Shown piece by piece: positions 6,680-59,386 of a stretch of DNA of 64,000 nucleotides (the first letter of the stretch is position 1; every line of letters starts with the position of its first letter). Location: NCBI GenBank assembly GCA_934119935.1, contig CAKOSX010000001.1, forward strand, positions 332,299-396,298, written 5' to 3'. Both the position numbers and the translations under genes were made by a program. The notes under the pieces are model-generated. The model was not told where the DNA came from. It searched no databases and saw nothing but the letters and a program-made list of their open reading frames with translations. The DNA comes from an uncultured Clostridia bacterium. GTDB taxonomy: Bacteria; Bacillota; Clostridia; TANB77; CAG-508.

Positions 6680-6709
6680 CATAAAAAAATGAAGATTTTA
6701 CTCAAGATT

Positions 6710-6738
6710 CCTCGTCCAATAGGGACGGGGGATTTTGG
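6710..6738 (+). terminator. Rho-independent terminator of xerD
   Basis: cctcgtcc-aatag-ggacgggg hairpin followed by gattttggg. Confidence 0.55.
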
Positions 6739-6825
6739 GCGAAAACTAAATATGATTGTAAAATTAGTTACTATACTAACATGTGGCTAAACAAGAAAAA
6801 AATTTAAAAAATTTAAAAATTAGTA

Positions 6826-6854
6826 TTGACAAAAATATTAACCTATGGTATTAT
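6826..6854 (+). promoter_or_regulatory. Sigma-A type promoter for tRNA-Gly
   Basis: TTGACA-17 nt-TATTAT about 30 nt upstream of tRNA. Confidence 0.5.
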
Positions 6855-6883
6855 AATAACTGTCGTTAGGAAATACATAAAAT

Positions 6884-6957
<74 letters not shown>

Positions 6958-6972
6958 TAGCAAAATAAAATA

Positions 6973-6997
6973 GAGTCTCATAAGACTCTGTTTTTTC
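6973..6997 (+). terminator. tRNA terminator
   Basis: gagtctc-ataa-gagactc hairpin plus TGTTTTTT. Confidence 0.7.
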
Positions 6998-7004
6998 GTA
7001 TAAA

Positions 7005-7085
7005 GGGAATCGAAAAGGAGGAATAGAAATTAGTCCAGTGGACTAATTTCCCGACGCGGCTCGGCGATTCCCGCTACCTGCTCCA
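7005..7085 (+). other. tRNA 3'-end mimic element, copy 1 (Gly-UCC type)
   Basis: gggaatcg-aaaaggaggaatagaaattaGTCCagtGGACtaatttcccgacgcggctcgg-CGATTCCCGCTACCTGCTCCA. The last 21 nt are identical to the 3' end of the adjacent tRNA including CCA. The 5' gggaatcg is the reverse complement of cgattccc. Confidence 0.7.
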
Positions 7086-7253
7086 AGATTGCGAACCCAT
7101 ATTGATATAGAGATATTTCAATATGGTGTTCTTTTTTTGTTAAAAGTAATAGTGCTAATAAATGTTTTTATTAGCTTTAGATAATGCATACGTATTAAAG
7201 TTATTCTAAACACAAGGGGGTACCAGGAAATTCCTGATACCTCCATTGTGTTG

Positions 7254-7568
7254 TTAATAACAACGAATATGCTCAGAGCAATTGTTGCACCCTAAAGCGC
7301 AACCAACACTTTCTTTTTGCAAAATTTCCAGACTGCATCTTTCGTTGGAAGCCTTTGATTCCTGACAGCTTCTGCAACGACATTTTTCTTTGCAGTAGCA
7401 CAGTTTACCTTCGGACAGAACCTGTTTTTTACACTGTTCTACAGCGCTTTCGGTATTACATGTGGGAAGAGAATAGTGCTGCTCGGAAATGCTGCTCTTA
7501 GGTGTTTTTTCCGGATTTTTCCGGGTTCCTACCTGTTGAACTTTGTTACGTTTTTTGTGCATAGACAT
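7254..7568 (-). CDS. Cys-rich small protein (104 aa) in GC-rich cassette
   Basis: Good RBS aaggagg; motifs CYCKEKCRCRSC and GCALGCNNC; locally high GC. Confidence 0.5.
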   Translation of the reverse strand: MSMHKKRNKVQQVGTRKNPEKTPKSSISEQHYSLPTCNTESAVEQCKKQVLSEGKLCYCKEKCRCRSCQESKASNERCSLEILQKESVGCALGCNNCSEHIRCY

Positions 7569-7794
7569 TGTTAAGCCTCCTTAAAAATTATTTTTTGGAT
7601 GTCTAGCTAAAAATGCCACATTAAGAGTATTGGCAAAAATTAACGGAATAATTGTATCACAGTTTTATGCCAAAATCAATATGCGAAAGTTATAGCAGGT
7701 AAATAATAAGGAAAATTAGAATAGAATAACAAAAAGCGCAACTGCGTTACACAGTTGCGCTTTTGCTTGTCCAAAGTATTGTTTACTTGGGCAC

Positions 7795-8256
7795 TTACTT
7801 CGCGGCGATATACATCTCCGTGAAGAGAAGGTTGCTCCGCAGCCAGACGACATAATTGTCGTCCTGCAGGAGGTGGATGCCCTTGTCGGCATCCTTTTTC
7901 AGCATATAGCTGTTGTCTGCCGTCACCCCCACATAGGGGATTTCAGAAGGAGCGTTCATATCATGCACCAAAATCACACGACCGGTGTCGTGGATCGGTT
8001 CATTGCTTACCATCTTATTCAGAAGATAGGCAAGCTTCATACCGAGATCCCCGGTGCTTAGCAGAACAGCGCTGATATAGCAACCGCCCTCGTGAACCTC
8101 GTTAGGTGCGTACCGCATATAGCGTGCACGTTTTCCAAACACTTCAAGGACTTCAGCTGCATTGTCTGCGACTTCTTCAGGAAAATTCTGAGTGAAACCC
8201 ATAATTTCCCGTTCGGGGCAAATGTCTGCTTTTGCAGACGTTTTGAATTTTGTCAT
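7795..8256 (-). CDS. Hypothetical protein (153 aa) in GC-rich cassette
   Basis: Intact ORF, GC about 50% versus about 30% background. Confidence 0.5.
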   Translation of the reverse strand: MTKFKTSAKADICPEREIMGFTQNFPEEVADNAAEVLEVFGKRARYMRYAPNEVHEGGCYISAVLLSTGDLGMKLAYLLNKMVSNEPIHDTGRVILVHDMNAPSEIPYVGVTADNSYMLKKDADKGIHLLQDDNYVVWLRSNLLFTEMYIAAK

Positions 8257-8462
8257 TTTTTTTGACCTCCTTGTGGTCTTTTTTGTGTGTTATACGGAGC
8301 AAACTTCTTGAAATAATAATGTTTGCAAATTTTAGTATACCACACTTTACATAAAATGTAAAGCACTGCAAATAAAAACGGTGTATAATGGTAAATTTGT
8401 ATGTTTAAATAAAAAATACTTGCAAAAATTTATTAAAGTGATAAAATATAGACATGAAAAAT

Positions 8463-8536
8463 GCAGATGTAGTTTAGTGGTAGAACTTTGCCTTCCCAAG
8501 GCAATAGTGTGGGTTCGATTCCCATCATCTGCTCCA
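8463..8536 (+). tRNA. tRNA-Gly (anticodon CCC), CCA encoded
   Basis: Acceptor GCAGATG/CATCTGC; anticodon stem TTGCC/GGCAA; loop TTCCCAA. Confidence 0.9.
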
Positions 8537-8590
8537 GAATGAAAAGAGAAATTGGAGTTTTATATAACTTTAATTTTTTTCTTTTTATAA

Positions 8591-8671
8591 GGGAATCGAA
8601 AAGGAGGAGCAGAAATTAGTCCTGAGGACTAATTTCCCGACGCGGCTCGACGATTCCCATCATCTGCTCCA
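8591..8671 (+). other. tRNA 3'-end mimic element, copy 2 (Gly-CCC type)
   Basis: Same core as copy 1, but the 3' part is cgattcccATCATCTGCTCCA, matching the 3' end of tRNA-Gly(CCC) rather than Gly(UCC). Confidence 0.7.
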
Positions 8672-8726
8672 TAAAGTAAAAGAAAAATTAGAGCTTTTTT
8701 AAAACTTTAATTTTTTATTTTTTTGA

Positions 8727-8795
8727 GGCAATCGAAAAGGTGTAATAGAAATTAGTTTGGAAAATTAAATTTTCGATGTGGCTTGGCGATTTTCA
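8727..8795 (+). other. Degenerate third copy of tRNA 3'-end mimic element
   Basis: ggcaatcgaaaaggtgtaatagaaattagtttgg...gatgtggcttggcgattttcat; recognisably the same core but decayed. Confidence 0.5.
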
Positions 8796-8813
8796 TAGCA
8801 TATTCTATAATAT

Positions 8814-8842
8814 TTGACATTTTATGTAAAGCGTAGTATAAT
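8814..8842 (+). promoter_or_regulatory. Consensus sigma-A promoter of GC-rich cassette
   Basis: TTGACA-17 nt-TATAAT exactly. Confidence 0.65.
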
Positions 8843-8919
8843 ATAAATAGTCCGAAAATTTTTTTTGTGAAACTCGGTAAGTCCTCCGAATTGAGAGGCA
8901 CGAGAAAAGGAGAGAGTAT

Positions 8920-9328
8920 TATGGCACACATTCTCGTAAACGCGTTCGCATTATCGATGCTTCCTCTGGAGGCTATGAATTTTGTTCGGGTGAAGAAGAT
9001 CAACCCGAATGAAGTTCCGGCAGACGTTGAATCTGCCATCGGCCATACGGACACTGCGAAAGTGGTGTCTGGCATCTTGGGTTTCGAGGTGAAGCCTAAC
9101 CGGGTTAGCATTAAGCTGACCGAGAGCGACGTCTTGTACGTTGCTCAGTACACTGGGCCGAGGCTGCCGGAGGGTGCAACCACCTTGCCGGAAGGCGCAA
9201 GCCTCGAGTTCTTCGAGGTCACCTTCCACAAGGAAGGATGCCGTGGATGCCATGGCTACGATTCTGGCACTTGCCAGAATTGTATCTTCAGCTTCTGGCT
9301 GAGCGGCGCTCCCATCATGGAGCGATAA
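8920..9328 (+). CDS. Hypothetical protein (136 aa) in high-GC (about 55%) cassette; possibly DUF1874-like
   Basis: ATG at 8920 with RBS aaaaggagagag preferred over the GTG at 8867 used by the ORF track; starts MAHILVNAFALSMLPLE. Confidence 0.55.
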
Positions 9329-11048: not shown

Positions 11049-12446
11049 ATGAATCAAAAGAAACAATTATTAGTTAACACTATAATAATAGCAATAGGCA
11101 AGCTAAGCACACAAGTTGTGTCTTTCTTGCTTTTGCCTCTATATACATCAAAATTAAGCCCGGCAGAATATGGAACATATGACTTCTTGGTAACTCTATC
11201 AACATTTTTGTTGCCAATAATAACATTGCTTATGGAAGAGTCTATGTTTAGATTTTTGATCGATGCTAATGACTTAAAGAGTAAAAAAAGAGTTATAACG
11301 GCTACAATTGCATACACTTTAGTTGGAACTATTATATTTACTGCCATTGCTGGAATAGTTATGGGAGTAATGCATTACGAATATACATTTGTATTTATAT
11401 TGTTTATAATTTCAAATATCTTATTGGGATTGAGCAATGCCTTGGCTAGAGGAACCGGAAAGATAAAATTATATTCTTTCTCAAACTTTATATTGGGAGC
11501 CTCTACAATCGTATTAAACATAATATTCATAGTAAGCTTAAAACTTGGCGTTAGTGGACTTTTATGGGCAAATACAGTCGCAAACAGTGCAACAGCAATA
11601 ATAATTTTATTAAAATTACATTTACCACAGTTCGTAAGCAGAAAAGACTTTCATAAGTCTACTTTAAGAGAAATGCTTAGATATTCAGTACCACTTGTAC
11701 CAAACAATTTATCTTGGATAATCATAAGCTTATCAGATAGACTTATGCTTACAGCAATGAGTGGTACAGAAGCAAATGGAATTTATTCTATTGCAAATAA
11801 ATTTCCAAATATAATTTATACATGTTATGGATTTTTTTCTACTGCATGGAAAGAATCGGCTGCAAAAATATTAAAAGATGATAACAAAGTAAAATATTAT
11901 AATAGCATTTATAAAGATATAAAATTCTTTTTAAAGGCAATCGTATTAGGACTAATCGCAATAATGCCATTCGTATTTTCGCTATTTGTAGACGAAAGCT
12001 ATAACGATGCATATATGTACATTCCAATCCTTGTAATATCAATTTATTACACAAACATGTCAAACTTCTATGGGGGAATATTTACAGCATATAAAAATAC
12101 TAAAATAATGGGCTCAACAACAGTTGCGGCAGCAATTATCAACATAGTAATAAACATAATATTCATACCAAAATTCGGAATATATGCAGCATCATTTTCA
12201 ACATTAATTTCAAATTTGATTGTATTTTTATACAGAAGATACAAATTAAAAGAATACATAGTTTTAAAAGAAAAATTTAACTATGTGTTTTGGATATTGC
12301 TAGTAGCAACACTAATCACATATTACAAAAACAATCTAATTGCAAACATAATAATGTTTATAATAGTGCTTGCGTACTGTATATTTACAAATATGGGATT
12401 CTTAAAGAAAATAGCAGAACCAGTAATAAATAAATTTAAGAAATAA
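11049..12446 (+). CDS. Oligosaccharide/polysaccharide flippase (Wzx, MOP superfamily)
   Basis: 465 aa, 12-14 TM; N-terminal LLVNTIIIAIGKLSTQVVSFLLLPLYT typical of Wzx family. Confidence 0.7.
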   Translation: MNQKKQLLVNTIIIAIGKLSTQVVSFLLLPLYTSKLSPAEYGTYDFLVTLSTFLLPIITLLMEESMFRFLIDANDLKSKKRVITATIAYTLVGTIIFTAIAGIVMGVMHYEYTFVFILFIISNILLGLSNALARGTGKIKLYSFSNFILGASTIVLNIIFIVSLKLGVSGLLWANTVANSATAIIILLKLHLPQFVSRKDFHKSTLREMLRYSVPLVPNNLSWIIISLSDRLMLTAMSGTEANGIYSIANKFPNIIYTCYGFFSTAWKESAAKILKDDNKVKYYNSIYKDIKFFLKAIVLGLIAIMPFVFSLFVDESYNDAYMYIPILVISIYYTNMSNFYGGIFTAYKNTKIMGSTTVAAAIINIVINIIFIPKFGIYAASFSTLISNLIVFLYRRYKLKEYIVLKEKFNYVFWILLVATLITYYKNNLIANIIMFIIVLAYCIFTNMGFLKKIAEPVINKFKK

Positions 12447-13468: not shown

Positions 13469-15037
13469 ATGAACGGTTTTTTTAAATGGTTTAAATCAGG
13501 AGCCAAAATAAAAAGATGGATTCTTTTAATGTTAATAGGAATGGTTCTTGTATGTTATGGAATTTCAAAAGTACTAGTAACAGATGTGATGGGATTTAGA
13601 GAACTTGCAAAAATAATATTTGTGTTTGTTTTGGGATTTACATTCACAATAGTTAGTATAATATGCATTCAGAAAAGAACATTAGAGATACTGGTAGAAG
13701 AATCTGATACAAGAGATCTAGATGATAAGAGCAAAGTTAAATCTTTAATATTCAACAGAAAAATATATAATCAAGGTCCAAAAGTTGTTGTAATTGGTGG
13801 TGGCTCTGGACTTAACACAGTGCTTAGAGGATTAAAAAACTACACAGACAATATAACAGCAATTGTTACAGTATCAGACTATGGAGAGCAGAGAAGTAAA
13901 TCAAAACAAGATTTAGGAACACTTCCATTAGATGATGTAAAAGATAGTTATATTGCTTTAGCAGCAAATGAAAATGAGATGGGCTGTCTAATGAATTTAA
14001 CATTTAAAAATCCTAAATTAGAAGGATTAAAGTTTGGAGACATATATCTAACAGCAATGAAGGAGGCTGTTGGAGACTTTTCTTCATCAGTAGAAGAAAG
14101 TTCAAAGATACTTAATATGACCGGAAAAGTTCTTCCAGTAACACTTGATCAAATTAAGATATGTGCTGAATTAGAAGATGGAACTGTGGTAGAATGTAAA
14201 GATAAAATTCCAGAAATGGTTAGTCAAAAAATAAGCAAAATCAGTAGAATTTACATATCTCCAACCAATATTAGAGTTGCACCAGGTGTTATAGAGGCAA
14301 TAGAAGAGGCTGATGCAATAGTAATTGGACCTGGAAGCCTATATACAAATGTAATTCCAAATCTATTGGTACCGGGAGTATCGAAGACAATAAGAGAATC
14401 AAGTGCATTTAAGATTTACGTAAGTAATATAATGACAGAATATGGTCAAACTGATAGTTATACCCTATACGACCATATAAAGGCTATAATAGACCATGCT
14501 GGAAAAGGAATAATAGACTATTGTATTTATGATACAGGTGAGATAGTGCCAGAATACATAAGGCAGTATAATAAAGAAGGCTCAGAGCTTGTAGAACAAG
14601 ATGTTTCTAAGGTAAAAGACGCAGGAATCAAGTTGATTCAAAGAAATATGTCCACAATCGAGAATGGAAGAATAAGACATAACTCTGATGCAATAGCAAC
14701 AAGCATTATTCAATTAATTTGTGATGATTTGAAATTTAGAGACATGCAAAATGACACAAGATACATAATGCTGGATTCAAAAATAAAAGATACTAAAAAG
14801 AAGATGAAGAAGAACAAAAAGAAAACAAATAACCAAAAGGCAAATTCAAAACATCCAGAAAGCAAGTTCTTTGAAAAGTATAATGATAGAATACAGTCAA
14901 TACAGGAAAGTTCAAAAAGAAAGGTACCTGCAAATAAAAAGCCTGCAGAGAAAAGAACAATAGAAGACGACAAAGCCTTAAAAAATAAAATGGAAGAGAC
15001 ATTAAAGAAAATGAAGGCATCCAACAAGAAAAAATAA
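13469..15037 (+). CDS. yvcK: YvcK/CofD-like (UPF0052) protein with N-terminal 2-TM segment and Lys-rich C-terminal tail
   Basis: VVVIGGGSGLNTVLRGLK..AIVTVSDYGE core of YvcK family; N-terminal hydrophobic segments; C-terminal KKKMKKNKKKTNNQK. Confidence 0.75.
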   Translation: MNGFFKWFKSGAKIKRWILLMLIGMVLVCYGISKVLVTDVMGFRELAKIIFVFVLGFTFTIVSIICIQKRTLEILVEESDTRDLDDKSKVKSLIFNRKIYNQGPKVVVIGGGSGLNTVLRGLKNYTDNITAIVTVSDYGEQRSKSKQDLGTLPLDDVKDSYIALAANENEMGCLMNLTFKNPKLEGLKFGDIYLTAMKEAVGDFSSSVEESSKILNMTGKVLPVTLDQIKICAELEDGTVVECKDKIPEMVSQKISKISRIYISPTNIRVAPGVIEAIEEADAIVIGPGSLYTNVIPNLLVPGVSKTIRESSAFKIYVSNIMTEYGQTDSYTLYDHIKAIIDHAGKGIIDYCIYDTGEIVPEYIRQYNKEGSELVEQDVSKVKDAGIKLIQRNMSTIENGRIRHNSDAIATSIIQLICDDLKFRDMQNDTRYIMLDSKIKDTKKKMKKNKKKTNNQKANSKHPESKFFEKYNDRIQSIQESSKRKVPANKKPAEKRTIEDDKALKNKMEETLKKMKASNKKK

Positions 15038-36841: not shown

Positions 36842-38825
36842 ATGAATAAGAAAATAAAAGAGGCTGAAAACCTTATGGCTGTACACACACACACACACAC
36901 ACGGACATTTTAAAGAAAAGGGAATAACATTAATTGCATTAGTAATCACAATTGTTGTTCTACTAATTCTAGCAGGAATAAGTTTGAACTTAGTACTTGG
37001 TGAGAACGGCATTGTTACGAAGGCGAAAGATGCAAGAGAACAAACAATAATAGGGCATGAAAAAGAGCAAATAAACTTAGCATATTCAGCATGTAAAACA
37101 AGAGAAAACTTTGATGATTTAGTTACAGCAAGTGAACTCGAAACAGAAATGAAAAAGTCAAATGAAAATGTATCTGTAGCAGCAGACGGAGACAATCTTG
37201 TTATTACGTTTGAAGAGACGAAGCACCAATACAACATTGGACAAGATGGAAGTTTTAAAGAAAATACTAATCAAAATATTGATTGGAGCACATTAGAGCC
37301 AGGGTTATACAAGACGGGAACATCAGAGATGATAAAATCTTGGCAAGAATTGATTGATGATGGAGACATAACAGTAGAAGGAACAAAGCTTAATGAAATT
37401 AAGACGATTTTTAGTTATGGCCAAGATGTAACTATGCCTCTGGCAGGAGATTTGATTATATCAAATGATATGACAGAAATTGGTAGCCTTACAGGAGGAA
37501 AAGCAGCTTGCTATGTTGGAAAATCAGGCATTACAGGCGTATATGTTCCATCAAGTGTAAAAAAGTTGACAAGTAGTAGTCAGTATGGCTATGGTGGCTT
37601 TTTTGCTATGTTTGATATGAAGAAAATTGTTATTGAAGAAGGGCTGGAAGAAATAGGAGATTATTCGTTTGCTAGTTGTTACAATCTTATAGAGGTAGAA
37701 TTACCAGATAGTGTTACAACAGTTGGTGACTATGCTTTCGCATGGAGCAGTAATATAGTGAATGTAAAAATACCGGATAATGTTATACTTGGCAAAGCAT
37801 GCTTTATAAGTAATAGATTAACCCAAATTCCTCAAAACATAACATCGATTGGTGAAACTATGTTTGCTAACTGTGAAGAATTGAAGGTGGTCAATATTCC
37901 AAATGGTATTACATCAATTGGAGCTAGAGCTTTTTCCGGTTGTGGTAATATAACGAGTATTAATATTCCAAGTAGTGTAAAAGTAATAGGAGAAGGAGCC
38001 TTTTTATACTGTGGTAATATAACGAACATTAATATTCCAGCTAGTGTAAAAGTAATAGGAAGAGAAGCTTTTTCCCGTTGTGGTAATATAACGAGTATTA
38101 ATATCCCAAATAGTGTAAAGAAAATAGGAGCTGAGGCTTTCAAGGATTGTGTGAACCTATCTGACATAAATGGATTTGACAATGCAATTTCAGTTGGTCT
38201 AAGGTCTCTAGATGGAACAAAGTGGTATAATAGTCAACCAGATGGAGAGGTATATATAGGAAAGACATTGTATAATTATAAAGGAACAATGTCAGCCGAT
38301 ACTAGATTAAAAATAAAAGATGGGACAGAAAATATTGCTGATAGAGCTTTTGAAGACTGTACAGGGCTAATTGAAGTGACACTACCATCTAGTGTAAAGA
38401 ATGTAGGAGAATATTGTTTTTATAATTGCAAAAATTTATCTGATGTAAATGTAAATGAAAGCATTGAGAGAATTGGATGGTGTGCTTTCAGCGGAACAAA
38501 ATGGCAAGATAGTCAAAATGATGGGTATATATACATAGGAAATGTACTTTATTATTATAAAGGTAGTGAAAGACCAAAAGAAGTACAGGTCAAGGATGGG
38601 ACAATCAGTATTACGGAAAGTGCTATTTATCCAGATACTATAATCATACCTAAAAGCGTGAAATATATAGGAGAAGGAATATTAGGAAGTAGGTGGAGTT
38701 GGAGTACATCACATAATTGTGTTGTAAATTATATGGGAACAGAAGAGGAATGGAATTCAATTGAAATTGAAGAATCAAATTTTTCTGGCAATCTTACCAT
38801 AAACTACAATTATACTGGAGAATAA
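36842..38825 (+). CDS. Prepilin-like-leader BspA-type leucine-rich repeat surface protein, phase-variable, currently frameshifted OFF
   Basis: ATG 36842 with RBS aggagg reads MNKKIKEAENLMAVHTHTHTRTF-stop. The -1 frame continues GHFKEKGITLIALVITIVVLLILAGISLNLVLGENG and LRR_5 repeats (IP.SV.SIG..AF..C). No start codon in the long frame. Confidence 0.7.
36883..36902 (+). repeat. (AC)10 dinucleotide tract inside 5' coding region
   Basis: gtACACACACACACACACACACgg at codons 15-21 of the ORF starting at ATG 36842. Confidence 0.95.
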
Positions 38826-38831
38826 TTTAAA

Positions 38832-40532
38832 GTGAACAAACTAAAAAAATATCTAACTAAAGAAAATATTATAATAACTATAGTCCTACTAGTTGGAGCT
38901 ATTATATCTTCCGTTTTTATGTTCAAGCAGGTATACAACGGAATAGATACCGCATATCACATGTCAAGAATAATCGGCATAACAAACAGCTGGAAAGCTG
39001 GAGATTTACTAGCATACATACATTTGAACACTAGTGGATATGGCTATGCAATGGGTTTCTTTTATAGCAATTTATTTATTATTCTACCTAGCATTTTATA
39101 TATGCTAGGTATGAACATAATTTTAGTATATAAAATATTTATACTAATGTGCAGCATTGCAACTGCAATAACCATGTACATATGCACAAAACAAATAAGC
39201 AAAAGCAAGTATGCAGCAACTATATCAGCATTTTTATACACAACTTGTAGCTATAGAATAATTACTCTTGTTGTGAAGGCTTTTGTTGGCGAGATTCTAA
39301 GCTTCATTTTTATCCCACTAATAATTTTAGGATTGTACCAATTAATTTTTGGAGATTCAAAAAAGTGGTGGATTTTTACTATTGGATTTGTTGGAATTTT
39401 GAATTCTAATCTGGTAATGACGGAAATTATGATTTATATTTCTGCTGTTTTTGTATTGTGTAATATTAAAAAGATTATAAAGGATAAGGGCAGACTCAAG
39501 GGTTTCATAAAAGCGACTGTTTTAGCATTGTTAGTAAGTGCAATGTTTTGGATGCCTATGATTGAACAGCTTATAAAATCAACATTTCACATGAAAGATG
39601 GAATGAACATGTATAGGCCTACATGGTGGCTGTTAAGTTTTGGGGACTTATTTAACGGGCTGATGAAGCTCGGAACCCAAATTACGCCTGCTTATGGACT
39701 TGGTTTTATATTTATTGTGATAGCAATATTACGTTTAGCAATAAGAAATGTAGATGCACAAAAGCTAAAATTTTGCGATATATCAATTTTAGCAGGATTG
39801 GTGTTATTGCTATGCATGACAAAATTTTTTCCATGGAAATACTTAAAAACTTTAGGAGGAATGATTCAATTTCCAAGTAGACTAGAAGTGCCAGCGGCAG
39901 CATTTTTCTCAATTGCATCTGGAATGATCTGCCACTACTTAACGGAGAAAAAAACAATATTAAGAAGAATTATTTTTGGAATAATCATAATATATCAGAT
40001 TGGATTTGTGTTTATGTGCATAAAATCTTGTGAAGATGCTCTGATTGAAGTTGAGCTATACAGAGGACTTGATAGTGTATATATTGATGAGAATTTTGAG
40101 TACGATATTTGCGATGGCATGTATTTGCCGGAAGGCGCAAACGTACAAAGTAAACTGATAAGCCACGGAAGGCATGAAGAAAAAGAAGATAAATATAAGA
40201 CTAATAATAGCGAGTGTAATTTCAAATATGCAAAGAATGGACTTAAAGTAAACATATCATTTGAAAACAATAAAGAAGTCAATACTTATATAGAAGTTCC
40301 AATTTATTACTATTATGGTTATGTAGCAGAAAATCCAGAAAATAACACAAAATATAAAATCGAAAAAGGAGACGAAGGCGTAATTCGAGTATATTTGGAA
40401 AATTCGGAATCTGGAACAATACAAATATATTATAAAACTACAATAGTTCAGAAATTATCAATTATTATTACAATTGTAACATTATTGGGAATAATAATTT
40501 GCAAAAAAAATCAGCATAATGGGCATTTGTAA
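38832..40532 (+). CDS. Polytopic membrane protein, putative GT-C type glycosyltransferase (YfhO/O-antigen-ligase-like)
   Basis: 566 aa, 10+ TM with C-terminal extracytoplasmic domain; GTG start 6 nt after LRR gene stop. Confidence 0.5.
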   Translation: MNKLKKYLTKENIIITIVLLVGAIISSVFMFKQVYNGIDTAYHMSRIIGITNSWKAGDLLAYIHLNTSGYGYAMGFFYSNLFIILPSILYMLGMNIILVYKIFILMCSIATAITMYICTKQISKSKYAATISAFLYTTCSYRIITLVVKAFVGEILSFIFIPLIILGLYQLIFGDSKKWWIFTIGFVGILNSNLVMTEIMIYISAVFVLCNIKKIIKDKGRLKGFIKATVLALLVSAMFWMPMIEQLIKSTFHMKDGMNMYRPTWWLLSFGDLFNGLMKLGTQITPAYGLGFIFIVIAILRLAIRNVDAQKLKFCDISILAGLVLLLCMTKFFPWKYLKTLGGMIQFPSRLEVPAAAFFSIASGMICHYLTEKKTILRRIIFGIIIIYQIGFVFMCIKSCEDALIEVELYRGLDSVYIDENFEYDICDGMYLPEGANVQSKLISHGRHEEKEDKYKTNNSECNFKYAKNGLKVNISFENNKEVNTYIEVPIYYYYGYVAENPENNTKYKIEKGDEGVIRVYLENSESGTIQIYYKTTIVQKLSIIITIVTLLGIIICKKNQHNGHL

Positions 40533-40657
40533 GCCAGTACCTTGTATAGCCTATAAAATTGACATATTATGTTTAGTATAGTATAATAAAAAAAGGTCAT
40601 TTCAATTGTTGTGCACGGATGTAATTACATTTTATCACAAAGAAAGGAAGGGTTTTT

Positions 40658-42031
40658 ATGAAGCAACGGAGGCAAAGAAGGAGGGCCCACACAGATTTTT
40701 ATGTAGTGGGAATACTATTTTTGCTTGTAATTGTTGGAGTGTGGGTGTTTAGCAACACACACTTCCTAAGAGGTACGTTCATTGGAGGAGTTGACTGCTC
40801 GTATTTAACAGTCGACGATGCCTTGAACAAAGTTCAACAGGAGGCAGGAGAATACACAAATAAGCTGTACTTTATCGATGAAACGACATATGATGTGAAA
40901 AACTGCGAGATTGGAGTTGTTTTTGAACGGGATAAGTTCGAGAGCGTTTTCAAGAGACAGCATGATGACAAAAATGTTAACAGAGTTTATGGAGTTAGCG
41001 ATGTAACGTCGATTAACGAAGGACAAGTCGCAATGTATCTGACAACGATTCCGGAATTGCAGCAGGCGAATATGGTGGAGCCGAAAGATGCTCACATAAC
41101 TTGGGATGGTGCAAGTTTTGGAACCGAAAAAGAAACCATTGGCAACATGATTGATTTTAACGAAGCACTGGAATTCACGCTTCAAGAGCTTAGAGCCGAT
41201 GAAAACGAAATCTATCTTTCTGATATAACTCGGTCAGTACCTAGTGTGACTGAGGGAGATCTTGAAGGAAGAGTGGCGTATCTGAATAGACTTTTGAAGA
41301 GCTGTATTAACATTACTTTAAGCGATGGATCTGTTGTGACGCTTGACTATAACACGATAAAGTCGTGGATCGGGCAAGATGAGAATGGAGACTTCTCTAT
41401 TAATGTTAATGCTGGCGTTCCGAGTTTTGTTGAAGAATTGGCTACAAAGGTCGATAAGGCAAATGCAACAATGCGTTTTAAGGCTACCAACCGGAGCAAT
41501 CTTGTTAGCGTAAAGGTTCCCAAGAGCCGTAGAGCTAAGTTAAACAAGGAAGCCGAAGCAAATCAGCTGGAAGCATTGCTGGGGTCTACCGAACCTGTGG
41601 ATTGTACTCCAATCTATGAAGGAAATTTAATTTCCGAAGCCGATTTGTCAAATCGTGTCGAAATCGATATTACAAATCAGCATGTCTGGATGTATAAAGA
41701 CAATACGCTCATTGCAGACACAGACTGCGTCACTGGCAACGAAAGTGCTGGACACAGTACGCCTACGGGAGTGTACAAGTTGATATACAAAGAAAGGGAC
41801 AGATATCTCAGAGGCAAAAACGATGACGGAACTGACTATTGTTCGTTTGTGAAATACTGGATGCCGTTCAACGGAGGAGTCGGATTGCACGACGCATCGT
41901 GGCGCAGTAAATTTGGCGGAGACATTTACAAAAACGGTGGTTCACACGGTTGCGTAAATCTTCCCAGAAGCGTTGCGGAAACGATATATAACAACATCGA
42001 CAGTTCCTATTTCATAATCGTGTACAAGTAA
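40658..42031 (+). CDS. L,D-transpeptidase (YkuD domain) with N-terminal anchor and VanW-like region
   Basis: C-terminal HDASWRS...GGSHGCVNL catalytic His/Cys motif; locally elevated GC. Confidence 0.75.
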   Translation: MKQRRQRRRAHTDFYVVGILFLLVIVGVWVFSNTHFLRGTFIGGVDCSYLTVDDALNKVQQEAGEYTNKLYFIDETTYDVKNCEIGVVFERDKFESVFKRQHDDKNVNRVYGVSDVTSINEGQVAMYLTTIPELQQANMVEPKDAHITWDGASFGTEKETIGNMIDFNEALEFTLQELRADENEIYLSDITRSVPSVTEGDLEGRVAYLNRLLKSCINITLSDGSVVTLDYNTIKSWIGQDENGDFSINVNAGVPSFVEELATKVDKANATMRFKATNRSNLVSVKVPKSRRAKLNKEAEANQLEALLGSTEPVDCTPIYEGNLISEADLSNRVEIDITNQHVWMYKDNTLIADTDCVTGNESAGHSTPTGVYKLIYKERDRYLRGKNDDGTDYCSFVKYWMPFNGGVGLHDASWRSKFGGDIYKNGGSHGCVNLPRSVAETIYNNIDSSYFIIVYK

Positions 42032-42094: not shown

Positions 42095-42135
42095 CTATGC
42101 AGAGGCGAGCTCAATGAGCTCGTCTTTGCGTTTTG
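42095..42135 (+). terminator. Rho-independent terminator
   Basis: gcgagctc-aat-gagctcgtc hairpin then TTTGCGTTTTGTG. Confidence 0.5.
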
Positions 42136-42255
42136 TGTTAATTATTTCAGCTATATTTCAATTAGATTTTAGTTACATTACAATTTGGCTAAAATATTGA
42201 AACAACCCGTATCATGTGCTACAATATACTTTATAAACTGTATGTAGGGGGAAAA

Positions 42256-43392
42256 ATGATGATAAATTTAAACCAAGGAAGAAAATATAAACAACTAAAC
42301 AAAGGAATAACTCTGGTGGCTCTTGTTGTAACGATTGTAGTTTTGCTTATATTAGCAGGAATAAGCATTAATCTTTTATTGGGTGAGAATGGCATAATAA
42401 AAAAAGCGAAAGAAGCGAGAGAAAAAACAGCAGAGGGCAAAACAAATGATATGCTTGGAATGAACCAGCTTATACAAGATATGTATGACTTAGAAAATTC
42501 CGAGAACAAAAAAGAGAATGATAAGGGTGATGACAAATCTGACGAAGTAAAAAAGTATAAAGTTACTATTCAATTTATTAATAGAGAAAATCAAAGCATA
42601 GTAAATTTTGGTAGTATCGAAATCTATGAAGGAGAATCAATTGGTCAAGATGCGAAGCAAATTGCAACCATTAGTGGAAAAAATGAAACAGAAAATGTTA
42701 TTTCTTTAGCTAAAGGCACATATACTGTAAGATGTTTGAAAGCACCTGATGGATACAAAAAAACAGCAGAAGATATTACTTTTAATGTGGATGAAAATGA
42801 TGAAAATAAATGGAAGATTGAAGTTACAAACGGTTCTTCAATATTACCTTCGACTGGTTCTTCTAGTATATACAGTATAACAGTTGAAGACGGAAGTAGT
42901 AACATTTCTACAAAAGGTGTTCAGTCTTTAACAGTACAATATGAGGGGCGTGAAGGAGTTAGATTAGAAATTATACCAATTGGAGAATATGATGAAAATA
43001 CGAAAAAAATTGTTGTAGATGATGAAATCGCCTCAATACTCGGAATAGAAAAAGAATTTGATAATAGAATAGTTGACTCGTCAAAAGCTGAAGATGTATA
43101 TCAGTATGTTAAGAAAAAACAGTTAATTGGAATTTCTAGTATAACCGACAGTGATGGGCGTTCTACGTTTTCGGAACTTGTGCCAAATATATATTTTGTA
43201 AAAACATCGTTGAGTAGCAAGTGTGATTTTATAATTAGTATGCCACTTTATGTGAAGGTGCCCGATGAAGAAGTATGTTATTATAATAGTGTTACTTTAA
43301 CACACGAAAAAAGAGGTACAGATAAGGAAGATGATTACTTTCTTGGAATTACAGACAATATAGATCAACCAATACCACCAATAAAAAAATAA
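42256..43392 (+). CDS. Prepilin-like-leader protein with two CnaB/SpaA-type pilin-like domains
   Basis: Leader KGITLVALVVTIVVLLILAGISINLLLGENGII; CnaB signature GTYTVRCLKAPDGYKK...ITFNV; second domain DGRSTFSELVPNIYFVKT; internal LPSTG. Confidence 0.6.
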   Translation: MMINLNQGRKYKQLNKGITLVALVVTIVVLLILAGISINLLLGENGIIKKAKEAREKTAEGKTNDMLGMNQLIQDMYDLENSENKKENDKGDDKSDEVKKYKVTIQFINRENQSIVNFGSIEIYEGESIGQDAKQIATISGKNETENVISLAKGTYTVRCLKAPDGYKKTAEDITFNVDENDENKWKIEVTNGSSILPSTGSSSIYSITVEDGSSNISTKGVQSLTVQYEGREGVRLEIIPIGEYDENTKKIVVDDEIASILGIEKEFDNRIVDSSKAEDVYQYVKKKQLIGISSITDSDGRSTFSELVPNIYFVKTSLSSKCDFIISMPLYVKVPDEEVCYYNSVTLTHEKRGTDKEDDYFLGITDNIDQPIPPIKK

Positions 43393-43401
43393 AGTGAAAA
43401 A

Positions 43402-43432
43402 CAGACAGCATTTTATTACTGTCTGTTTTTCA
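43402..43432 (+). terminator. Rho-independent terminator
   Basis: acagacag-cattttattact-ctgtctgt hairpin plus TTTTT. Confidence 0.65.
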
Positions 43433-46213: not shown

Positions 46214-46402
46214 GAATGAGCCAAAGTTGAAAGAATTAATATCAAAAAACGTAGAAATCAATAATAAGGTACATATCAAAAATCTGCAATAATCAACAGG
46301 GAAAGCAAGACTTATGCAAGTTTAAGAAAACACATAAAAAATATTGCAGTAAAAGGCCATTAATGATATACTATATCCGAAAAAAACTTAGGAGGAAGAG
46401 TG

Positions 46403-48016
46403 ATGAAAGAAAAAAATATGCAAAACAAAAGCATTGAGATTGGAAAATCACAAGAAAAGAAAACAAGAGCAAAAGGAATAACGCTAATTGCCTTAGTAAT
46501 AACAATAGTTATACTACTAATATTAGCAGGAATAAGCATAAACCTGGTATTAGGCGAAAACGGAATAATATCAAAAGCTCAAGAATCAAGGCTAAAGTCA
46601 GACAATGCAACAGTTTCAGACTCATTAAAAATGATGATAGCAAGATACTCAATAGACGACATGGGCGAAGGCAAAACAGACGTACTTGCAAGACTGAATT
46701 CTGATGGAATAACAGACGCAAACGATGTAATAAATGTACCAGTTTTAGTCGGGGAAAAACTTGGAACAGGAAATGGTAGTGGAACAAAAGATGTGTATGT
46801 TATAAAAGATAACAAATTATACTACTATGACAAAAAAGGCGAAAAAACAGACCTTGGAGATATAGCCAACTTGCAATTTAGCGGAGACAAACAAGAATCT
46901 GGAATATTTGTAATTACATCAGATGGAACAGTATACATGAAAGATAGGCAGTCTGGAGTTTATAGCGATGAATATGAGCGTTCTACAAAAGAGGTTATAA
47001 TTCCGAGTGAAATAAATGGAATTAAAGTAAAAAAACTTGGAAATTATATGTTCTGTAACTACATTGCTTTAGAAACTGTTGGAATTCCGGATGGAGTAAC
47101 TGAAATTGGAAATTATGCTTTTTATGGTTGTAGCAAAATTGACAATATTGTTATGCCAAACAGTGTTGAATGGATTGGAAAAGGTGCTTTTTGTGAATGT
47201 AGTGAAATTGCTAATATTATAATACCAGATGGTGTTACTAGCATAGGAGATCTTGCTTTCGCAGGGTGTTCTGGCTTGGAAAATATAAAAATGTCGGAAA
47301 ATATACAATATGTTGGAGATTTAGCTTTTGCAGGAACCAAATGGCTAAAAACACTTCCAGAAGGACTACTTTATTTTGGGAATATTCTTTATGCTTATAA
47401 TGGAGAAATACCACAAGGTACAACTATAGAAATTAAAGATGGAGTTACAAGAATTAATGGAGAGGCTTTTTCAAATCAAAAGGGGCTAATAGCCATAAAA
47501 ATACCAGATAGCGTTAAAAAAATTGGAGGAAGTGCTTTTAGTGGATGCAGTGAACTGACAAGCATAATAATACCTGATAGCGTAACAAGTATAGGAGAAG
47601 ATGCTTTTGAAGATTGTACTAAATTATCAAGTATAGATATTTCTGATAGTATAGAATATGTAGGATATGATGCTTTTCAAAGGACAGCATGGCTTAACAA
47701 TCAAAACGATGGAGTGGTTTATATTGGAAAAATATTATACTGCTATAAAGGAGAAATGCCAAGCAATACAACTATAACGGTAAAAGAGGGAACTACAAGT
47801 ATTGCTGGAATCTGTTTTGCAGAATGTACAAACCTTATAAGTATTACAATCCCAAAGAGCGTAACATATATAGGAATGGGAGCATTTTATATGTGTGATA
47901 ATTTAAAAACAATAAATTATAAAGGTTCAAAGGAAGATTGGAATAATATAACAATTGAAATACAGGCACCTGATGGATCTGGAATAACTGCAACTATCAA
48001 TTATAATTATAAATAA
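46403..48016 (+). CDS. Prepilin-like-leader BspA-type leucine-rich repeat surface protein
   Basis: RAKGITLIALVITIVILLILAGISINLVLGENGII leader; multiple IPDSVTSIGD.AF..C LRR_5 repeats; RBS ttaggagg. Confidence 0.65.
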   Translation: MKEKNMQNKSIEIGKSQEKKTRAKGITLIALVITIVILLILAGISINLVLGENGIISKAQESRLKSDNATVSDSLKMMIARYSIDDMGEGKTDVLARLNSDGITDANDVINVPVLVGEKLGTGNGSGTKDVYVIKDNKLYYYDKKGEKTDLGDIANLQFSGDKQESGIFVITSDGTVYMKDRQSGVYSDEYERSTKEVIIPSEINGIKVKKLGNYMFCNYIALETVGIPDGVTEIGNYAFYGCSKIDNIVMPNSVEWIGKGAFCECSEIANIIIPDGVTSIGDLAFAGCSGLENIKMSENIQYVGDLAFAGTKWLKTLPEGLLYFGNILYAYNGEIPQGTTIEIKDGVTRINGEAFSNQKGLIAIKIPDSVKKIGGSAFSGCSELTSIIIPDSVTSIGEDAFEDCTKLSSIDISDSIEYVGYDAFQRTAWLNNQNDGVVYIGKILYCYKGEMPSNTTITVKEGTTSIAGICFAECTNLISITIPKSVTYIGMGAFYMCDNLKTINYKGSKEDWNNITIEIQAPDGSGITATINYNYK

Positions 48017-48035: not shown

Positions 48036-49487
48036 ATGAACAAAAAGATTTGTTTATCAACCATTTTAATGACATTAATCATGCTAATTACAATGGTAAC
48101 AAGTGTATATGCTGCAAATGAAGATGTAACGCTTGTTAAAGTAAAGGACAACGTATGTACGATTAAGTTAGGAGATGACGGAGAAGTTATTAAACAACTT
48201 ATTTCTGTGGATAACGAGAAAAAAGAAGTTACTTTGCAAATTGATGTAAAGAATTTAAAGAGTAAGGAAGAAGAAATTCAACCAACAGAAATGTTTCTAG
48301 TTATCGATGATTCTAAGAGTATGTCTGATAATACTTTGTCAAGTGGAAAGACTAGAAAAGAGGCTGTGTTTACAGCTGCAAAGACTTTAGCAAAGCAAAT
48401 TTTAGAAGAACAACCAAGTACAAAGATTGGTGTTGTAAGTTTCTCATCAAACTCTGAAATTTCTAAAGAAGGAACACTAGAGGATGCAAAGCTTGTAATA
48501 GAGCCAAGTAGTAAAATCAGCGATATTACAACCGCAATAGATAATATCGAAACAACTGGTGGAAGAACTAATATTGATGCAGGTTTGCAAACTGCAAAAG
48601 CACATTTTTCAACAGATACAACACTTAATAAGTATTTAATATTGTTGACTGATGGAGTTCCAAATAACTCAGTTGGAACATCTTCAACATATTCTGGAGA
48701 CACTGCAAAAAATACAAAAGCTACTTTACAATCAATTAAAAATAGCGGAATAAATATTGTAACTGTTATGACAGGTGTTAACTCAACATATCAACCAGAC
48801 CCAACCGGAGCTGTATCTGCAGATGCCGCTGGAAAAACATATAAAGACCTAGCAGAAGAAATTTTCGGAACACAAGAAGCTCCAAGTTACGGAAAATTCT
48901 ATTATGTTTCAGATGATTCTGTTGAGGATACGATTACGAAAGTGGTTTATCAAGATGTAAGAACTGTAATAGAAAATGAAATTAAGGATATTACTGTTGT
49001 TGACTATTTCCCATTAGATATTGTTGAAAATTATGATTTTGAAATTTTTGAAGAAGCCAATATTGGAACTGTAACTCCAACAGTAGATACAGCCAATAAT
49101 ACCATCACATGGAAAATTACAACTTTAAAAGCTGGAGAGACAGCTTCGTTTAAATATAAATTAAAATTAAAAGAAAAATTTAATGAAAAAATTATAAATG
49201 TGGAGACTCCAACAAATCAAAAGCTTGATGTTAACTACACTGGAACAGATGGGAAAACTAAAAATGTATCATCTGATGTTTCTCCTTCGATAATGTTAAA
49301 GAAGGACGAAGTGCCAGAACCAACTCCAGAACCAACGCCGGAGCCAACACCAGAACCTAAGCCAGACAATACAATCGCACCAGATCCAATTCCACAAACA
49401 GGAGATAACACAGCATTTGTTGTATTCGGAATCGCTGTGGCAGGAATTGCGTTAGCAGTATGTATAAAGAATAGAAATAACAAATAA
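48036..49487 (+). CDS. Secreted von Willebrand factor A domain protein with Pro-rich linker and PQTG sortase cell-wall sorting signal
   Basis: Sec signal MNKKICLSTILMTLIMLITMVTSVYA; vWA LVIDDSKSMS..GGRTNIDAGL..LLTDGVPN; (EPTP)4; IPQTGDNT + hydrophobic + KNRNNK. Confidence 0.75.
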   Translation: MNKKICLSTILMTLIMLITMVTSVYAANEDVTLVKVKDNVCTIKLGDDGEVIKQLISVDNEKKEVTLQIDVKNLKSKEEEIQPTEMFLVIDDSKSMSDNTLSSGKTRKEAVFTAAKTLAKQILEEQPSTKIGVVSFSSNSEISKEGTLEDAKLVIEPSSKISDITTAIDNIETTGGRTNIDAGLQTAKAHFSTDTTLNKYLILLTDGVPNNSVGTSSTYSGDTAKNTKATLQSIKNSGINIVTVMTGVNSTYQPDPTGAVSADAAGKTYKDLAEEIFGTQEAPSYGKFYYVSDDSVEDTITKVVYQDVRTVIENEIKDITVVDYFPLDIVENYDFEIFEEANIGTVTPTVDTANNTITWKITTLKAGETASFKYKLKLKEKFNEKIINVETPTNQKLDVNYTGTDGKTKNVSSDVSPSIMLKKDEVPEPTPEPTPEPTPEPKPDNTIAPDPIPQTGDNTAFVVFGIAVAGIALAVCIKNRNNK

Positions 49488-57775: not shown

Positions 57776-59386
57776 TTATTTTCCAGTATTTATGTTAAAC
57801 ACTAAATGCTTATTGAAGTCTGTATTTAATACAGGATATATTCTTACATTTTTCAATTTGCTTGTTCCATTTGACAATCTTAAATATTTAAATGCAGGAG
57901 TAACTTTAATGTATGATATTTCTGCTCCAATTTTTCCGATTTTGGGATTATACAAAATACCACCAGAGAAATTCAGCGTTCTTAAAAATTTTTTATTTTC
58001 ATCGTAAATTGCATTATACATACTATCATTATCAATTACAATAACACTATTGTAATTTGATAAATCTAAATAATCTGTTTCGGCCCAGCCCGAATAACTT
58101 ACTTCTTCGCCATTTGTCTCAATATAATGGTCTAGAGTTAATTGTTCACTATCAAGAATAGAATCTTCTATTTTTATATTTTGATATGTATAATTATTTG
58201 AAAGATTATTTTCTTGTATTGGAAAAACTTTGATAGTATTTAGTATTCCAGTAATTTGAGATAACCTTATATATTTTACGTTTTTAGGGATACTCAATAT
58301 AACAATTTTTCCTTTTTTCAAATCTAATGTATCCACATCAACAGACAAACCTGAAACATAATTTTTTTCGGCATCATACATTGCACTATATGAAGTTATT
58401 GGACTGGTTTTTTCATATGAAATAGCCACTCTTGTATAATTTTCTACATCTATAAAATCTGTGGAGTTCCATGTCGAATTATATTTTATTTCAGCTCCAT
58501 CTGTTGAAGAAATATATGTATTATCTATTATTTTTCCATTTTCAAATATGTTATCACCGAAAGGATATTCTTCAACAAGACTTTTATATAGGTCAAGTCC
58601 TATTACATCGTTATAATCTTCATTTAGTATAGGAAATATTTTTATATGATTTAATAATGAGCTTTTTTGTGAGATTCTTAAGTATCTTTCATTTTCTTGC
58701 AATTTTAATATGGTAAGAGAAACATTAACTTTTCCTAACACATCATTAGTTATTGTAGCTTTATTAATTCGTAATATTCTTTGCGTTTCCTTATTTTCAT
58801 TATATAGAGCATTATAGCTATCTAAGAATGAACTAGAATCGCTCACAATCAAAATATTTTTGCATGTTCCTAAATCTATATAATCAGATGCGCTCCAACC
58901 GTTATATGAAATTTCTGACCCATCACTATTAGAGATATAGGTGTTATTCTTTATGTCTGCTAAGTTAAATAAGTTATCTCCAAGTAAAATATTCTCTAAA
59001 TCTTTTTCAACATCAGAAGCATATCCTAAAAAAGTTACCTCTCCATTGCCCTTTACACTATAATACCTTTGACTTTTTACTATCTTGACTAAATAATCTG
59101 TTCCATCTTCTCTTAACTCAGTTTCGTCTTTGCCGATATTAGTTATTAAGTTTTGCTCTAGCTCGTTTTTCTTTATTTGTAATGTTTTATTATTTTGTAT
59201 CGTTTGAAGTACTGTTAACTGAATTTTTTCTTTTTCAGAGCCTATGTCCATAGCAGTTTTTGCTTCTTCAATTTTCTCCAATATTCCATTATCACCAATT
59301 AGAACCTGAGTAGATACTCCTGCAATAATTAAGATTACAATAATTGTAATTACAAGAGCTACAACTGTAATTCCCTTATTTTTCAT
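57776..59386 (-). CDS. Prepilin-like-leader surface protein with three about 130-aa internal repeats
   Basis: MKNKGITVVALVITIIVILIIAGVSTQVLIGDNGILEK leader; repeats containing NNTYIS.SDG.EI.YN..W...D(Y/F)ID. Confidence 0.6.
   Translation of the reverse strand: MKNKGITVVALVITIIVILIIAGVSTQVLIGDNGILEKIEEAKTAMDIGSEKEKIQLTVLQTIQNNKTLQIKKNELEQNLITNIGKDETELREDGTDYLVKIVKSQRYYSVKGNGEVTFLGYASDVEKDLENILLGDNLFNLADIKNNTYISNSDGSEISYNGWSASDYIDLGTCKNILIVSDSSSFLDSYNALYNENKETQRILRINKATITNDVLGKVNVSLTILKLQENERYLRISQKSSLLNHIKIFPILNEDYNDVIGLDLYKSLVEEYPFGDNIFENGKIIDNTYISSTDGAEIKYNSTWNSTDFIDVENYTRVAISYEKTSPITSYSAMYDAEKNYVSGLSVDVDTLDLKKGKIVILSIPKNVKYIRLSQITGILNTIKVFPIQENNLSNNYTYQNIKIEDSILDSEQLTLDHYIETNGEEVSYSGWAETDYLDLSNYNSVIVIDNDSMYNAIYDENKKFLRTLNFSGGILYNPKIGKIGAEISYIKVTPAFKYLRLSNGTSKLKNVRIYPVLNTDFNKHLVFNINTGK

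Follow-up and report, generated by a model that had tools for sequence, protein, structure and literature searches.

A protein of an uncultured gut Firmicute that joins a prepilin-like leader to two pilin-type Ig domains, with an internal LPSTG that is probably a relic

The gene at positions 42256-43392 of a 64-kb stretch of contig CAKOSX010000001.1 (the window, by which we mean the whole stretch that was analyzed) encodes a protein of 378 amino acids (aa) in which a prepilin-like N-terminus is followed by two immunoglobulin-like (Ig) domains of sortase-pilin type with an LPSTG sequence between them. The source is an uncultured, spore-forming, low-GC Firmicute of the human gut. The window is ~31% G+C and carries the sporulation and germination genes SpoIIM and GPR amid housekeeping genes, and identical or near-identical copies of the gene occur in human-gut metagenomes (Hadza, Nepal, and others). 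A part of the window with higher G+C (0.355-0.367), at 5798-9328, holds a tyrosine recombinase gene (5798-6679), two tRNA genes (6884-6954 and 8463-8533), and an ORF of STIV_B116-like type (8867-9328), and it may be an integrated element or what is left of one. The full protein falls into five parts, namely a prepilin-like N-terminus, a spacer with helices and charged residues, a SpaA/CnaB domain, a disordered linker that holds the LPSTG, and a second Ig-like domain. This architecture had been described in an earlier reading of the DNA (the original prediction), and it is indeed present in the sequence and in the AlphaFold model. The gene and the segments of its product are as follows.

42256..43392, + strand: coding sequence of the protein under study, 378 aa plus stop, an intact open reading frame (ORF)
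42256..42306, + strand: basic leader peptide, residues 1-17, ending in Lys-Gly, with a putative prepilin-peptidase site after Gly17
42307..42381, + strand: hydrophobic helix ITLVALVVTIVVLLILAGISINLLL, residues 18-42, which resembles pilin alpha1N and has Ala at +5
42382..42513, + strand: conserved GENGII motif and amphipathic helical segment, residues 43-86, nearly invariant among orthologs and conserved in the leader family
42514..42552, + strand: Lys/Asp/Glu-rich spacer, residues 87-99, with a predicted local distance difference test score (pLDDT) <50 and its composition read from the sequence
42553..42831, + strand: domain 1, a SpaA/CnaB-type prealbumin-like Ig domain (PF17802), residues 100-192, beta strands with pLDDT about 80
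42832..42918, + strand: inter-domain linker, residues 193-221, disordered (pLDDT <50 at 193-203 and 212-220) and the most polymorphic segment
42844..42858, + strand: LPSTG, residues 197-201
42919..43305, + strand: domain 2, residues 222-350, an Ig domain of shaft-pilin type that has a helical insertion and matches no Pfam family
43306..43389, + strand: C-terminal tail, residues 351-378, a conserved DD..LGI and then a Pro-rich end, low model confidence

Over 200 metagenome contigs carry orthologs with the same protein architecture, in every case flanked by a YkuD and an RsmF gene, and the recurrence of the single ORF on so many independent contigs rules out an assembly or frameshift artefact that joined two genes. 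Neither the protein nor an alignment, each used as the query in a scan of the GTDB species genomes, retrieved a relative, and comparison of the target with a viral fold library and with PHROGs gave nothing significant and no phage link. The gene looks monocistronic because it has a promoter-like site of its own and terminator-like hairpins on both sides.

42197..42225, + strand: promoter-like site with TTGAAA, a 17-nt spacer and a TG-extended TACAAT (10 of 12 matches, TG before the -10 hexamer)
about 42245-42250, + strand: ribosome-binding site GGGGGA
42097-42131: terminator-like hairpin that closes the upstream YkuD gene
43395..43432, called on the - strand: terminator-like hairpin 3' of the stop codon, with a T run after the hairpin on the + strand too

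Positions 38832-42031 hold a gene for a YfhO-family membrane protein and a gene for an L,D-transpeptidase with transmembrane, PG_binding_4 and YkuD regions, and both stand upstream of the target in all orthologous loci. A functional tie between the target and the YkuD L,D-transpeptidase was considered and dropped; synteny was its one support, and a terminator-like hairpin separates the genes.

The two Ig domains differ in how far sequence can place them. Residues 132-192 of domain 1 match the Pfam SpaA family (PF17802) at E=4.8e-8 with 33.5 bits, above the gathering cut-off of 23.1, and a profile of the domain finds the SpaA-like protein 9vo5, the CnaB domains of L. rhamnosus SpaC, and CnaB2 (the parent of SpyCatcher) in the PDB. 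Domain 2 matches no Pfam family, SpaA included, and its sequence profile finds nothing in the PDB even at E≤10. Its AlphaFold model has a pLDDT of 80-95 (predicted template modeling score, pTM, of 0.75 for a domain-only model), and a Foldseek search with this domain alone returns shaft pilins first: LrpA (8wb8), SpaD (4hss), SpaA (3htl), and CppA (6ixy/5xcc), with E values of 8e-4 to about 1.5e-2 and TMq of 0.40-0.48. The full model retrieves almost only Gram-positive sortase-type pilins and adhesins at E of about 1e-8 to 1e-5, including the B. anthracis TIE protein, RrgC, BcpA, L. rhamnosus SpaA, GBS52, and RrgB. Folds of the CnaA/CnaB type are thus found in both domains, in domain 1 through PF17802 and in both through Foldseek matches to shaft, basal, and tip pilins. 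Two CnaB/SpaA domains had been predicted; the first stands on its sequence match, but the second is a pilin-type Ig domain by predicted fold only, and its membership of the SpaA family is not demonstrable by sequence.

Domain 2 is also rare. An exhaustive, profile-free search of 1.84 billion representatives found only two 50%-identity clusters, which are the two known clades, and in the same search the DGxxxF…YxVK segment of the domain weakly matched SdrD_B/SpaA repeat proteins. Searches with residues 195-378 and with residues 97-212 added almost nothing new, and the piece made of the SpaA domain and the LPSTG is not traceable to a particular sortase substrate. Many surface proteins use domains of the SpaA/CnaB fold as generic stalk modules. 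A thioester (TIE/TED) function of domain 2, an idea prompted by the top Foldseek match 6fwv and by the conserved Cys323, was rejected on the grounds that the domain has only about 130 residues and contains neither of the thioester motifs [YFL]C-hydrophobic-[DNE] and TQxxxW.

Chance is an unlikely source of the LPSTG, since it is the sole LPxTG in the 16,559 residues of the window's proteins (with an expectation of 0.003 for the target protein and 0.13 for the whole window), stands directly behind a SpaA domain, and is matched by LPATG in a 39%-identical homologue. The sister clade to which that homologue belongs, the only distant clade (39-43% identity), carries either LPATG or LPSTG at the equivalent site. 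As had been predicted, the motif is not a conventional C-terminal sorting signal: it occupies residues 197-201 of 378 and runs on into SSSIYSITVEDGSS, with no hydrophobic segment or charged tail behind it. Diversity was computed over 27 close-clade sequences, and its mean is 0.32 in linker residues 193-206, 0.03 in domain 1, and 0.135 in domain 2. Thr200 (0.69) and Gly201 (0.66) belong to the most variable positions; no substitution occurs at Leu197 or Pro198. The close clade has LPSTG, LPSYG, LPSYN, LPTSN, LPDSV, and an LPS allele with a three-residue deletion. This last allele, which has lost Thr-Gly-Ser, is the commonest, with 216 of the 254 contigs tallied and 17 of 35 distinct sequences. 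Conservation of LPSTG in orthologs had been named beforehand as the point on which its significance would turn, and beyond the Leu-Pro pair it is not conserved. With Thr and Gly this variable and both deleted in the commonest allele, the motif is dispensable.

The same 27 close orthologs show that the N-terminal half of the protein (residues 1-192) is almost invariant, with a mean diversity of ≤0.03, and that the C-terminal half (residues 193-378) has values of 0.13-0.32. This contrast between the halves, as read from the alignment, suggests diversifying pressure on the distal domain.

Could the LPSTG nevertheless be a working sortase site? A housekeeping or pilus sortase that cut the surface-exposed linker at Thr200 would then either release domain 2 or attach the membrane-anchored part with domain 1 to peptidoglycan or a lysine on a different subunit, and alleles that lack the motif would be uncleavable. 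The statistical surprise of the motif speaks for such a site, as do its location behind the SpaA domain, at just the spot expected of a sorting motif, the persistence of LPATG/LPSTG in the distant clade, and the predicted disorder of the linker, which would leave it accessible. The organism presumably has a sortase as well, given a canonical substrate encoded at 48036-49487. Against a working site stand Thr and Gly themselves, which are among the least conserved positions and deleted in the commonest allele, and the missing hydrophobic segment and charged tail behind them. Cleavage would also throw away the larger, folded C-terminal domain, the window contains no sortase gene, and the protein offers no acceptor motif of the YPKN type. 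We regard a working site as very unlikely. Obligatory sortase processing between the domains or cross-linking, as a reading of what was raised in the original prediction, fares poorly, with Thr200 and Gly201 variable, the dominant allele deleted, and the residues for isopeptide bonds absent by sequence, and the variability of LPSTG among orthologs favors the alternative named beside it, a fossil motif. LPxTG-like strings can survive as linker sequence, as the solved SpaA-like multidomain protein 9vo5 demonstrates with 'LPTT' at an inter-domain junction. Because the 39%-identical sister clade keeps LP[AS]TG, the motif in the target is probably a remnant of an ancestral sorting motif that is now decaying in the window's clade.

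The remaining hallmarks of a sortase-assembled pilin were sought in the protein and around its gene. The C-terminus reads …DQPIPPIKK and carries no C-terminal sorting signal (LPXTG, hydrophobic segment, and charged tail). No N-terminal Sec signal peptide is apparent in the target sequence, which begins with a prepilin-like leader or anchor without a signal-peptidase-type site. There is likewise no YPK/YPKN pilin motif in the target; domain 2 ends in LTHEK, LTHKK, or LYHER, with His-Glu-Lys or His-Lys-Lys at what may be the place of the shaft-pilin YPKN. In domain 1, the E-box YTVRCLKAPDGY has Cys160 at the position of the catalytic Glu (Val in the sister-clade protein P0013), the position in the first strand KVTIQFINRE that is Lys in CnaB domains is hydrophobic, and Asn192 in the last strand alternates with Lys among orthologs. 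In domain 2, the equivalent strand YFVKTSL has Thr at the Glu position and the first strand LTVQYEG is without Lys. Since the Lys and the E-box Glu positions are kept in neither domain, both domains are most likely free of isopeptide bonds, as judged from these residues. A search for sortases, which the original prediction had put forward, found none among the scanned window ORFs of ≥120 aa and none at orthologous loci. The window does encode the canonical sortase substrate.

That substrate (48036-49487) combines a Sec signal peptide with a VWA domain, a GBS104-like tip-pilin Ig domain, and PEPT repeats, and it ends in IPQTG followed by a hydrophobic segment and a KNRNNK tail, the only canonical sorting signal in the window. 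Its gene lies directly downstream of a leader-bearing LRR_5 gene. With such a substrate encoded, the organism very likely has a sortase somewhere.

It is hardly credible on this evidence that the target is itself a true subunit of a sortase-type pilus, or derives from one by permutation, and polymerizes covalently through its LPSTG and a domain 2 lysine such as that of …LTHEK. Both of its domains do have sortase-pilin folds, and the His-Glu-Lys or His-Lys-Lys stretch at the end of domain 2 may take the place of YPKN. Such a subunit would, however, be one with neither a Sec signal peptide nor a C-terminal sorting signal nor YPKN, with the E-box Glu and the first-strand Lys missing from both domains, with no adjacent sortase gene, and with an LPxTG that is dispensable and stands in reversed order to the domains relative to a pilin.

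The other end of the protein resembles a class III (prepilin) signal. The N-terminus reads …NKG/ITLVALVVTIVVLLILAGISI…, where the slash marks the putative cleavage site, and leader and helix together are MMINLNQGRKYKQLNKG/ITLVALVVTIVVLLILAGISINLLLGENGII. The leader is hydrophilic, has 17 residues (most relatives have a five-residue leader, MKKNK-G), and ends in Gly(-1) at the junction …KQLNKG/I; a hydrophobic stretch of ~20 residues, within ITLVALVVTIVVLLILAGISINLLL, begins right behind it. Helices 47-58 and 67-86 of the AlphaFold model are of low confidence. Position +5, at which type IV pilins have Glu, is Ala in the target and in 119 of the 120 best relatives listed. The Pfam N_methyl profile (PF07963, IPR012902) gives the target 15.9 bits, under its cut-off of 21.2, and P0013 also falls short with 19.9 bits. 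The target model contains no globular pilin module (a beta-sheet on alpha1C) and instead has helices and disorder, at low confidence, up to residue 99 and then the SpaA domain. The lack of Glu5, the sub-threshold profile score, and the lack of a globular pilin module are why we do not file the target as a proven type IV pilin. The type-IV-pilin-like leader of the original prediction is accordingly sound in its Gly(-1) and hydrophobic helix but departs from the pilin pattern at Glu5 and in the N_methyl score.

The leader is a common carrier module and is not peculiar to the 42256-43392 gene. A search with the full-length protein was saturated by matches to it, with at least 6,930 database proteins at E≤1e-3 (8,000 candidates were scored) that share only the first ~60 residues. 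Their C-terminal modules are unrelated to one another and include LRR_5 repeats and domains diversified by diversity-generating retroelements (DGRs). In the best 120 relatives listed, the consensus is MKKNKG/ITLVALVVTIVVLLILAGVSINLVLGDNGII.KAKEA, with Gly(-1), Thr(+2), and Leu(+3) essentially invariant and with Lys(-2) and Gly(-1) retained in 119-120. Weak N_methyl matches recur in three leader-carrying proteins (15.9, 16.9, and 19.9 bits; E=5e-4 to 1e-2), and one member of the family has been annotated as a PulG pseudopilin by JGI.

These observations bear on whether the N-terminus is a prepilin signal at all. It could instead be an uncleaved Sec signal-anchor, which would make the target a plain type II membrane protein and its prepilin resemblance superficial. 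The lack of Glu5, the sub-threshold N_methyl score, and the missing globular pilin domain fit a plain anchor. So does the genomic setting, in which housekeeping genes surround the scattered leader genes, the vicinity of five leader loci contains no pil genes, and four leader genes per 64 kb are many for minor pilins. What argues the other way is the strongly conserved K-G/I-T-L junction behind a very short basic leader, a layout of the prepilin-peptidase type. The N_methyl matches are weak but repeated, and the PulG annotation is on the same side. Glu5-less pilins do exist, and N_methyl-LRR_5 proteins have been counted as modular pilins in InterPro-based work. Overall, a plain signal-anchor strikes us as a possible but rather doubtful account of the N-terminus.

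Four genes in the window, the target among them, have a prepilin-like leader with a different C-terminal module behind it (leaders at 36918, 42301, and 46472 on the + strand and at 59377 on the - strand). The other three are listed here.

36843..38825, + strand: paralogue whose leader, from 36918, is fused to BspA LRR_5 repeats
46400..48016, + strand: paralogue whose leader, from 46472, is fused to BspA LRR_5 repeats
57776..59386, - strand: fourth leader gene, MKNKG/ITVVALVITIIVILIIAGVS…, 536 aa, no Pfam domain

Residues 278-475 of the protein of the fourth leader gene match PHROG 19519 ('neck protein') at E=7e-13. In the first paralogue an (AC)10 tract at 36883-36902 lies between the ATG (36843) and the leader and puts that ATG out of frame, its reading ending at a TAA ~15 nt past the tract. 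A 94%-related strain (L010) has two copies (tracts at 2923-2950 and 4635-4654), of which the one with 14 units is in frame and called from its ATG and the one with 10 units is out of frame. The (AC)n tract of this BspA LRR_5 gene looks like a device for slipped-strand phase variation. The number and length of the genes, LRR_5 and others, between the fucose-pyrophosphorylase gene and YfhO depend on the strain (one to four genes in loci L010-L013); the rest of these loci is syntenic with the window, and the variable stretch corresponds to 36843-38825 in the window. At a further locus (L008 10001-13700, and likewise at L009), a 447-aa protein with a KG/ITLVAL leader is the target of a DGR. Between its variable repeat of 137 nt (11201-11337) and the template repeat (13561-13697) there are 37 mismatches, of which 30 affect adenines of the template; close to these repeats lie a bAvd gene and a reverse-transcriptase motif, YMDD.

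Several known systems provide points of comparison. Sortase-dependent shaft pilins (C. diphtheriae SpaA and SpaD, L. ruminis LrpA, C. perfringens CppA, B. cereus BcpA, and L. rhamnosus SpaA) are the best structural neighbors of the target and share with it an LPxTG behind a CnaB-type domain. Unlike them, the target is without a Sec signal peptide, C-terminal sorting signal, YPKN, isopeptide residues, and a neighboring sortase gene, and its LPxTG is internal and not conserved. A second group comprises the SpaA, CnaB, and SdrD-B stalk repeats (PF17802, PF05738, and PF17210) found in Gram-positive surface proteins other than pili. Domain 1 itself belongs to PF17802, the weak match of the DGxxxF…YxVK segment in domain 2 falls in this group, and the 'LPTT' junction of 9vo5 adds to the likeness. 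The target differs in that it has one copy and not a tandem array, and an N-terminal anchor in place of a C-terminal wall anchor.

On the side of type IV pili, the modular pilins S. sanguinis PilB and PilC resemble the target in having a prepilin-like signal and hydrophobic helix that carry adhesive or Ig modules. The target differs from them by its Ala at +5, Ile at +1, sub-threshold N_methyl score, and lack of a globular pilin module, and its gene stands alone, outside any pil operon. The Glu5-less minor pilins of the filament tip (GspK or 'K' subunit and S. sanguinis PilA) lack Glu5 just as the target does, which is compatible only with a place at the very tip. Those known pilins have a pilin fold and belong to minor-pilin operons, and the likeness of the target to them was assessed at the leader only. 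Glu5-less pilins have been interpreted as filament-tip subunits, the cases being the K subunit in the HIJK complex and PilA in S. sanguinis (PMC9934059).

The original prediction considered it unusual for one polypeptide to mix the signatures of two pilus systems. The case for that has weakened, since the leader recurs in at least 6,930 proteins and SpaA folds are generic. The combination of N_methyl and SpaA has also been catalogued already (PMC8179133). Raynaud et al. (2021) defined 'modular pilins' as a pilin N-terminus with grafted, unrelated functional modules and recorded 264 architectures among more than 1,200 such proteins (PMC8179133). Their Dataset S1 includes 18 + 6 proteins with IPR012902-IPR026906 (N_methyl-LRR_5) and 2 proteins with IPR012902-IPR041033 (N_methyl-SpaA prealbumin-like) (PMC8179133). 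The architecture of N_methyl plus SpaA is therefore on record, though unstudied. The target stands out by a carrier that lacks both Glu5 and a globular pilin module and by a pilin-like head domain that is rare and unclassified.

Taken together, the picture that we consider likely is an adhesin stalk with a variable head that is anchored at its N-terminus or displayed at a pilus tip, in which the LPSTG is an unneeded relic. The leader module (a basic leader ending in Gly, a hydrophobic helix of ~25 residues, GENGII, and an amphipathic helix) would insert the protein into the membrane. In one version, the N-terminal helix would remain as the membrane anchor of an exported protein. In the other, a prepilin peptidase would cut after Gly17 to yield a modular pilin without Glu5, which could take its place at the tip of a type IV filament. 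Within this picture the two versions are close to evenly balanced, with at most a slight lean toward the cleaved pilin. The charged spacer and the nearly invariant SpaA/CnaB-type domain may serve as a stalk that spaces the head from the membrane, and the polymorphic, shaft-pilin-like Ig domain would be the distal head and likely the ligand-binding part. The LPSTG would have been inherited, probably from an ancestor of the SpaA module that was a sortase substrate, and would now sit in an unconstrained, flexible linker. A sortase would have no required role, and the protein would not be a sortase-assembled pilin.

Several points weigh against this picture. Prepilin-type processing is unproven for a protein whose N_methyl score, residue +5, and overall fold, as judged from sequence and model, fall short of a pilin. 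Genes for the prepilin peptidase, pilus ATPase, and platform protein (PilD, PilB, and PilC) were found neither in the 64-kb window nor, in other genomes, in the 10 kb on either side of five sampled leader genes. The stalk and head assignments and the adhesin function are roles that we infer, and the isopeptide-free state of the domains is a reading of the sequence. Finally, LPxTG is kept across the divergence between the clades (39% identity) in an otherwise diverged linker, and it could be, or could have been, functional in some lineages.

The finding carries a lesson for annotation, which is that an internal LPxTG beside a SpaA domain is not to be read as a sorting signal. It also illustrates the reuse of pilin-type Ig folds outside sortase pili. 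A long shot that we would still mention is that, in the strains that keep LPxTG, the motif is a live sortase site on a protein anchored in the manner of a type IV pilin, with the head shed or the stalk linked to the wall or to another protein and with cleavable and non-cleavable forms maintained as a polymorphism. If true, this would be natural cross-talk between the two pilus pathways of Gram-positive bacteria. The wider point concerns the Glu5-less prepilin-like leader, which is found on thousands of surface proteins of gut Firmicutes (BspA-type LRR proteins, pilin-like Ig proteins, and DGR receptors), some of them apparently phase-variable. Settling whether this leader is cut by a prepilin peptidase and leads to display on type IV filaments, or serves only as a membrane anchor, would explain by what route many adhesins of gut commensals, a large class, come to the surface.

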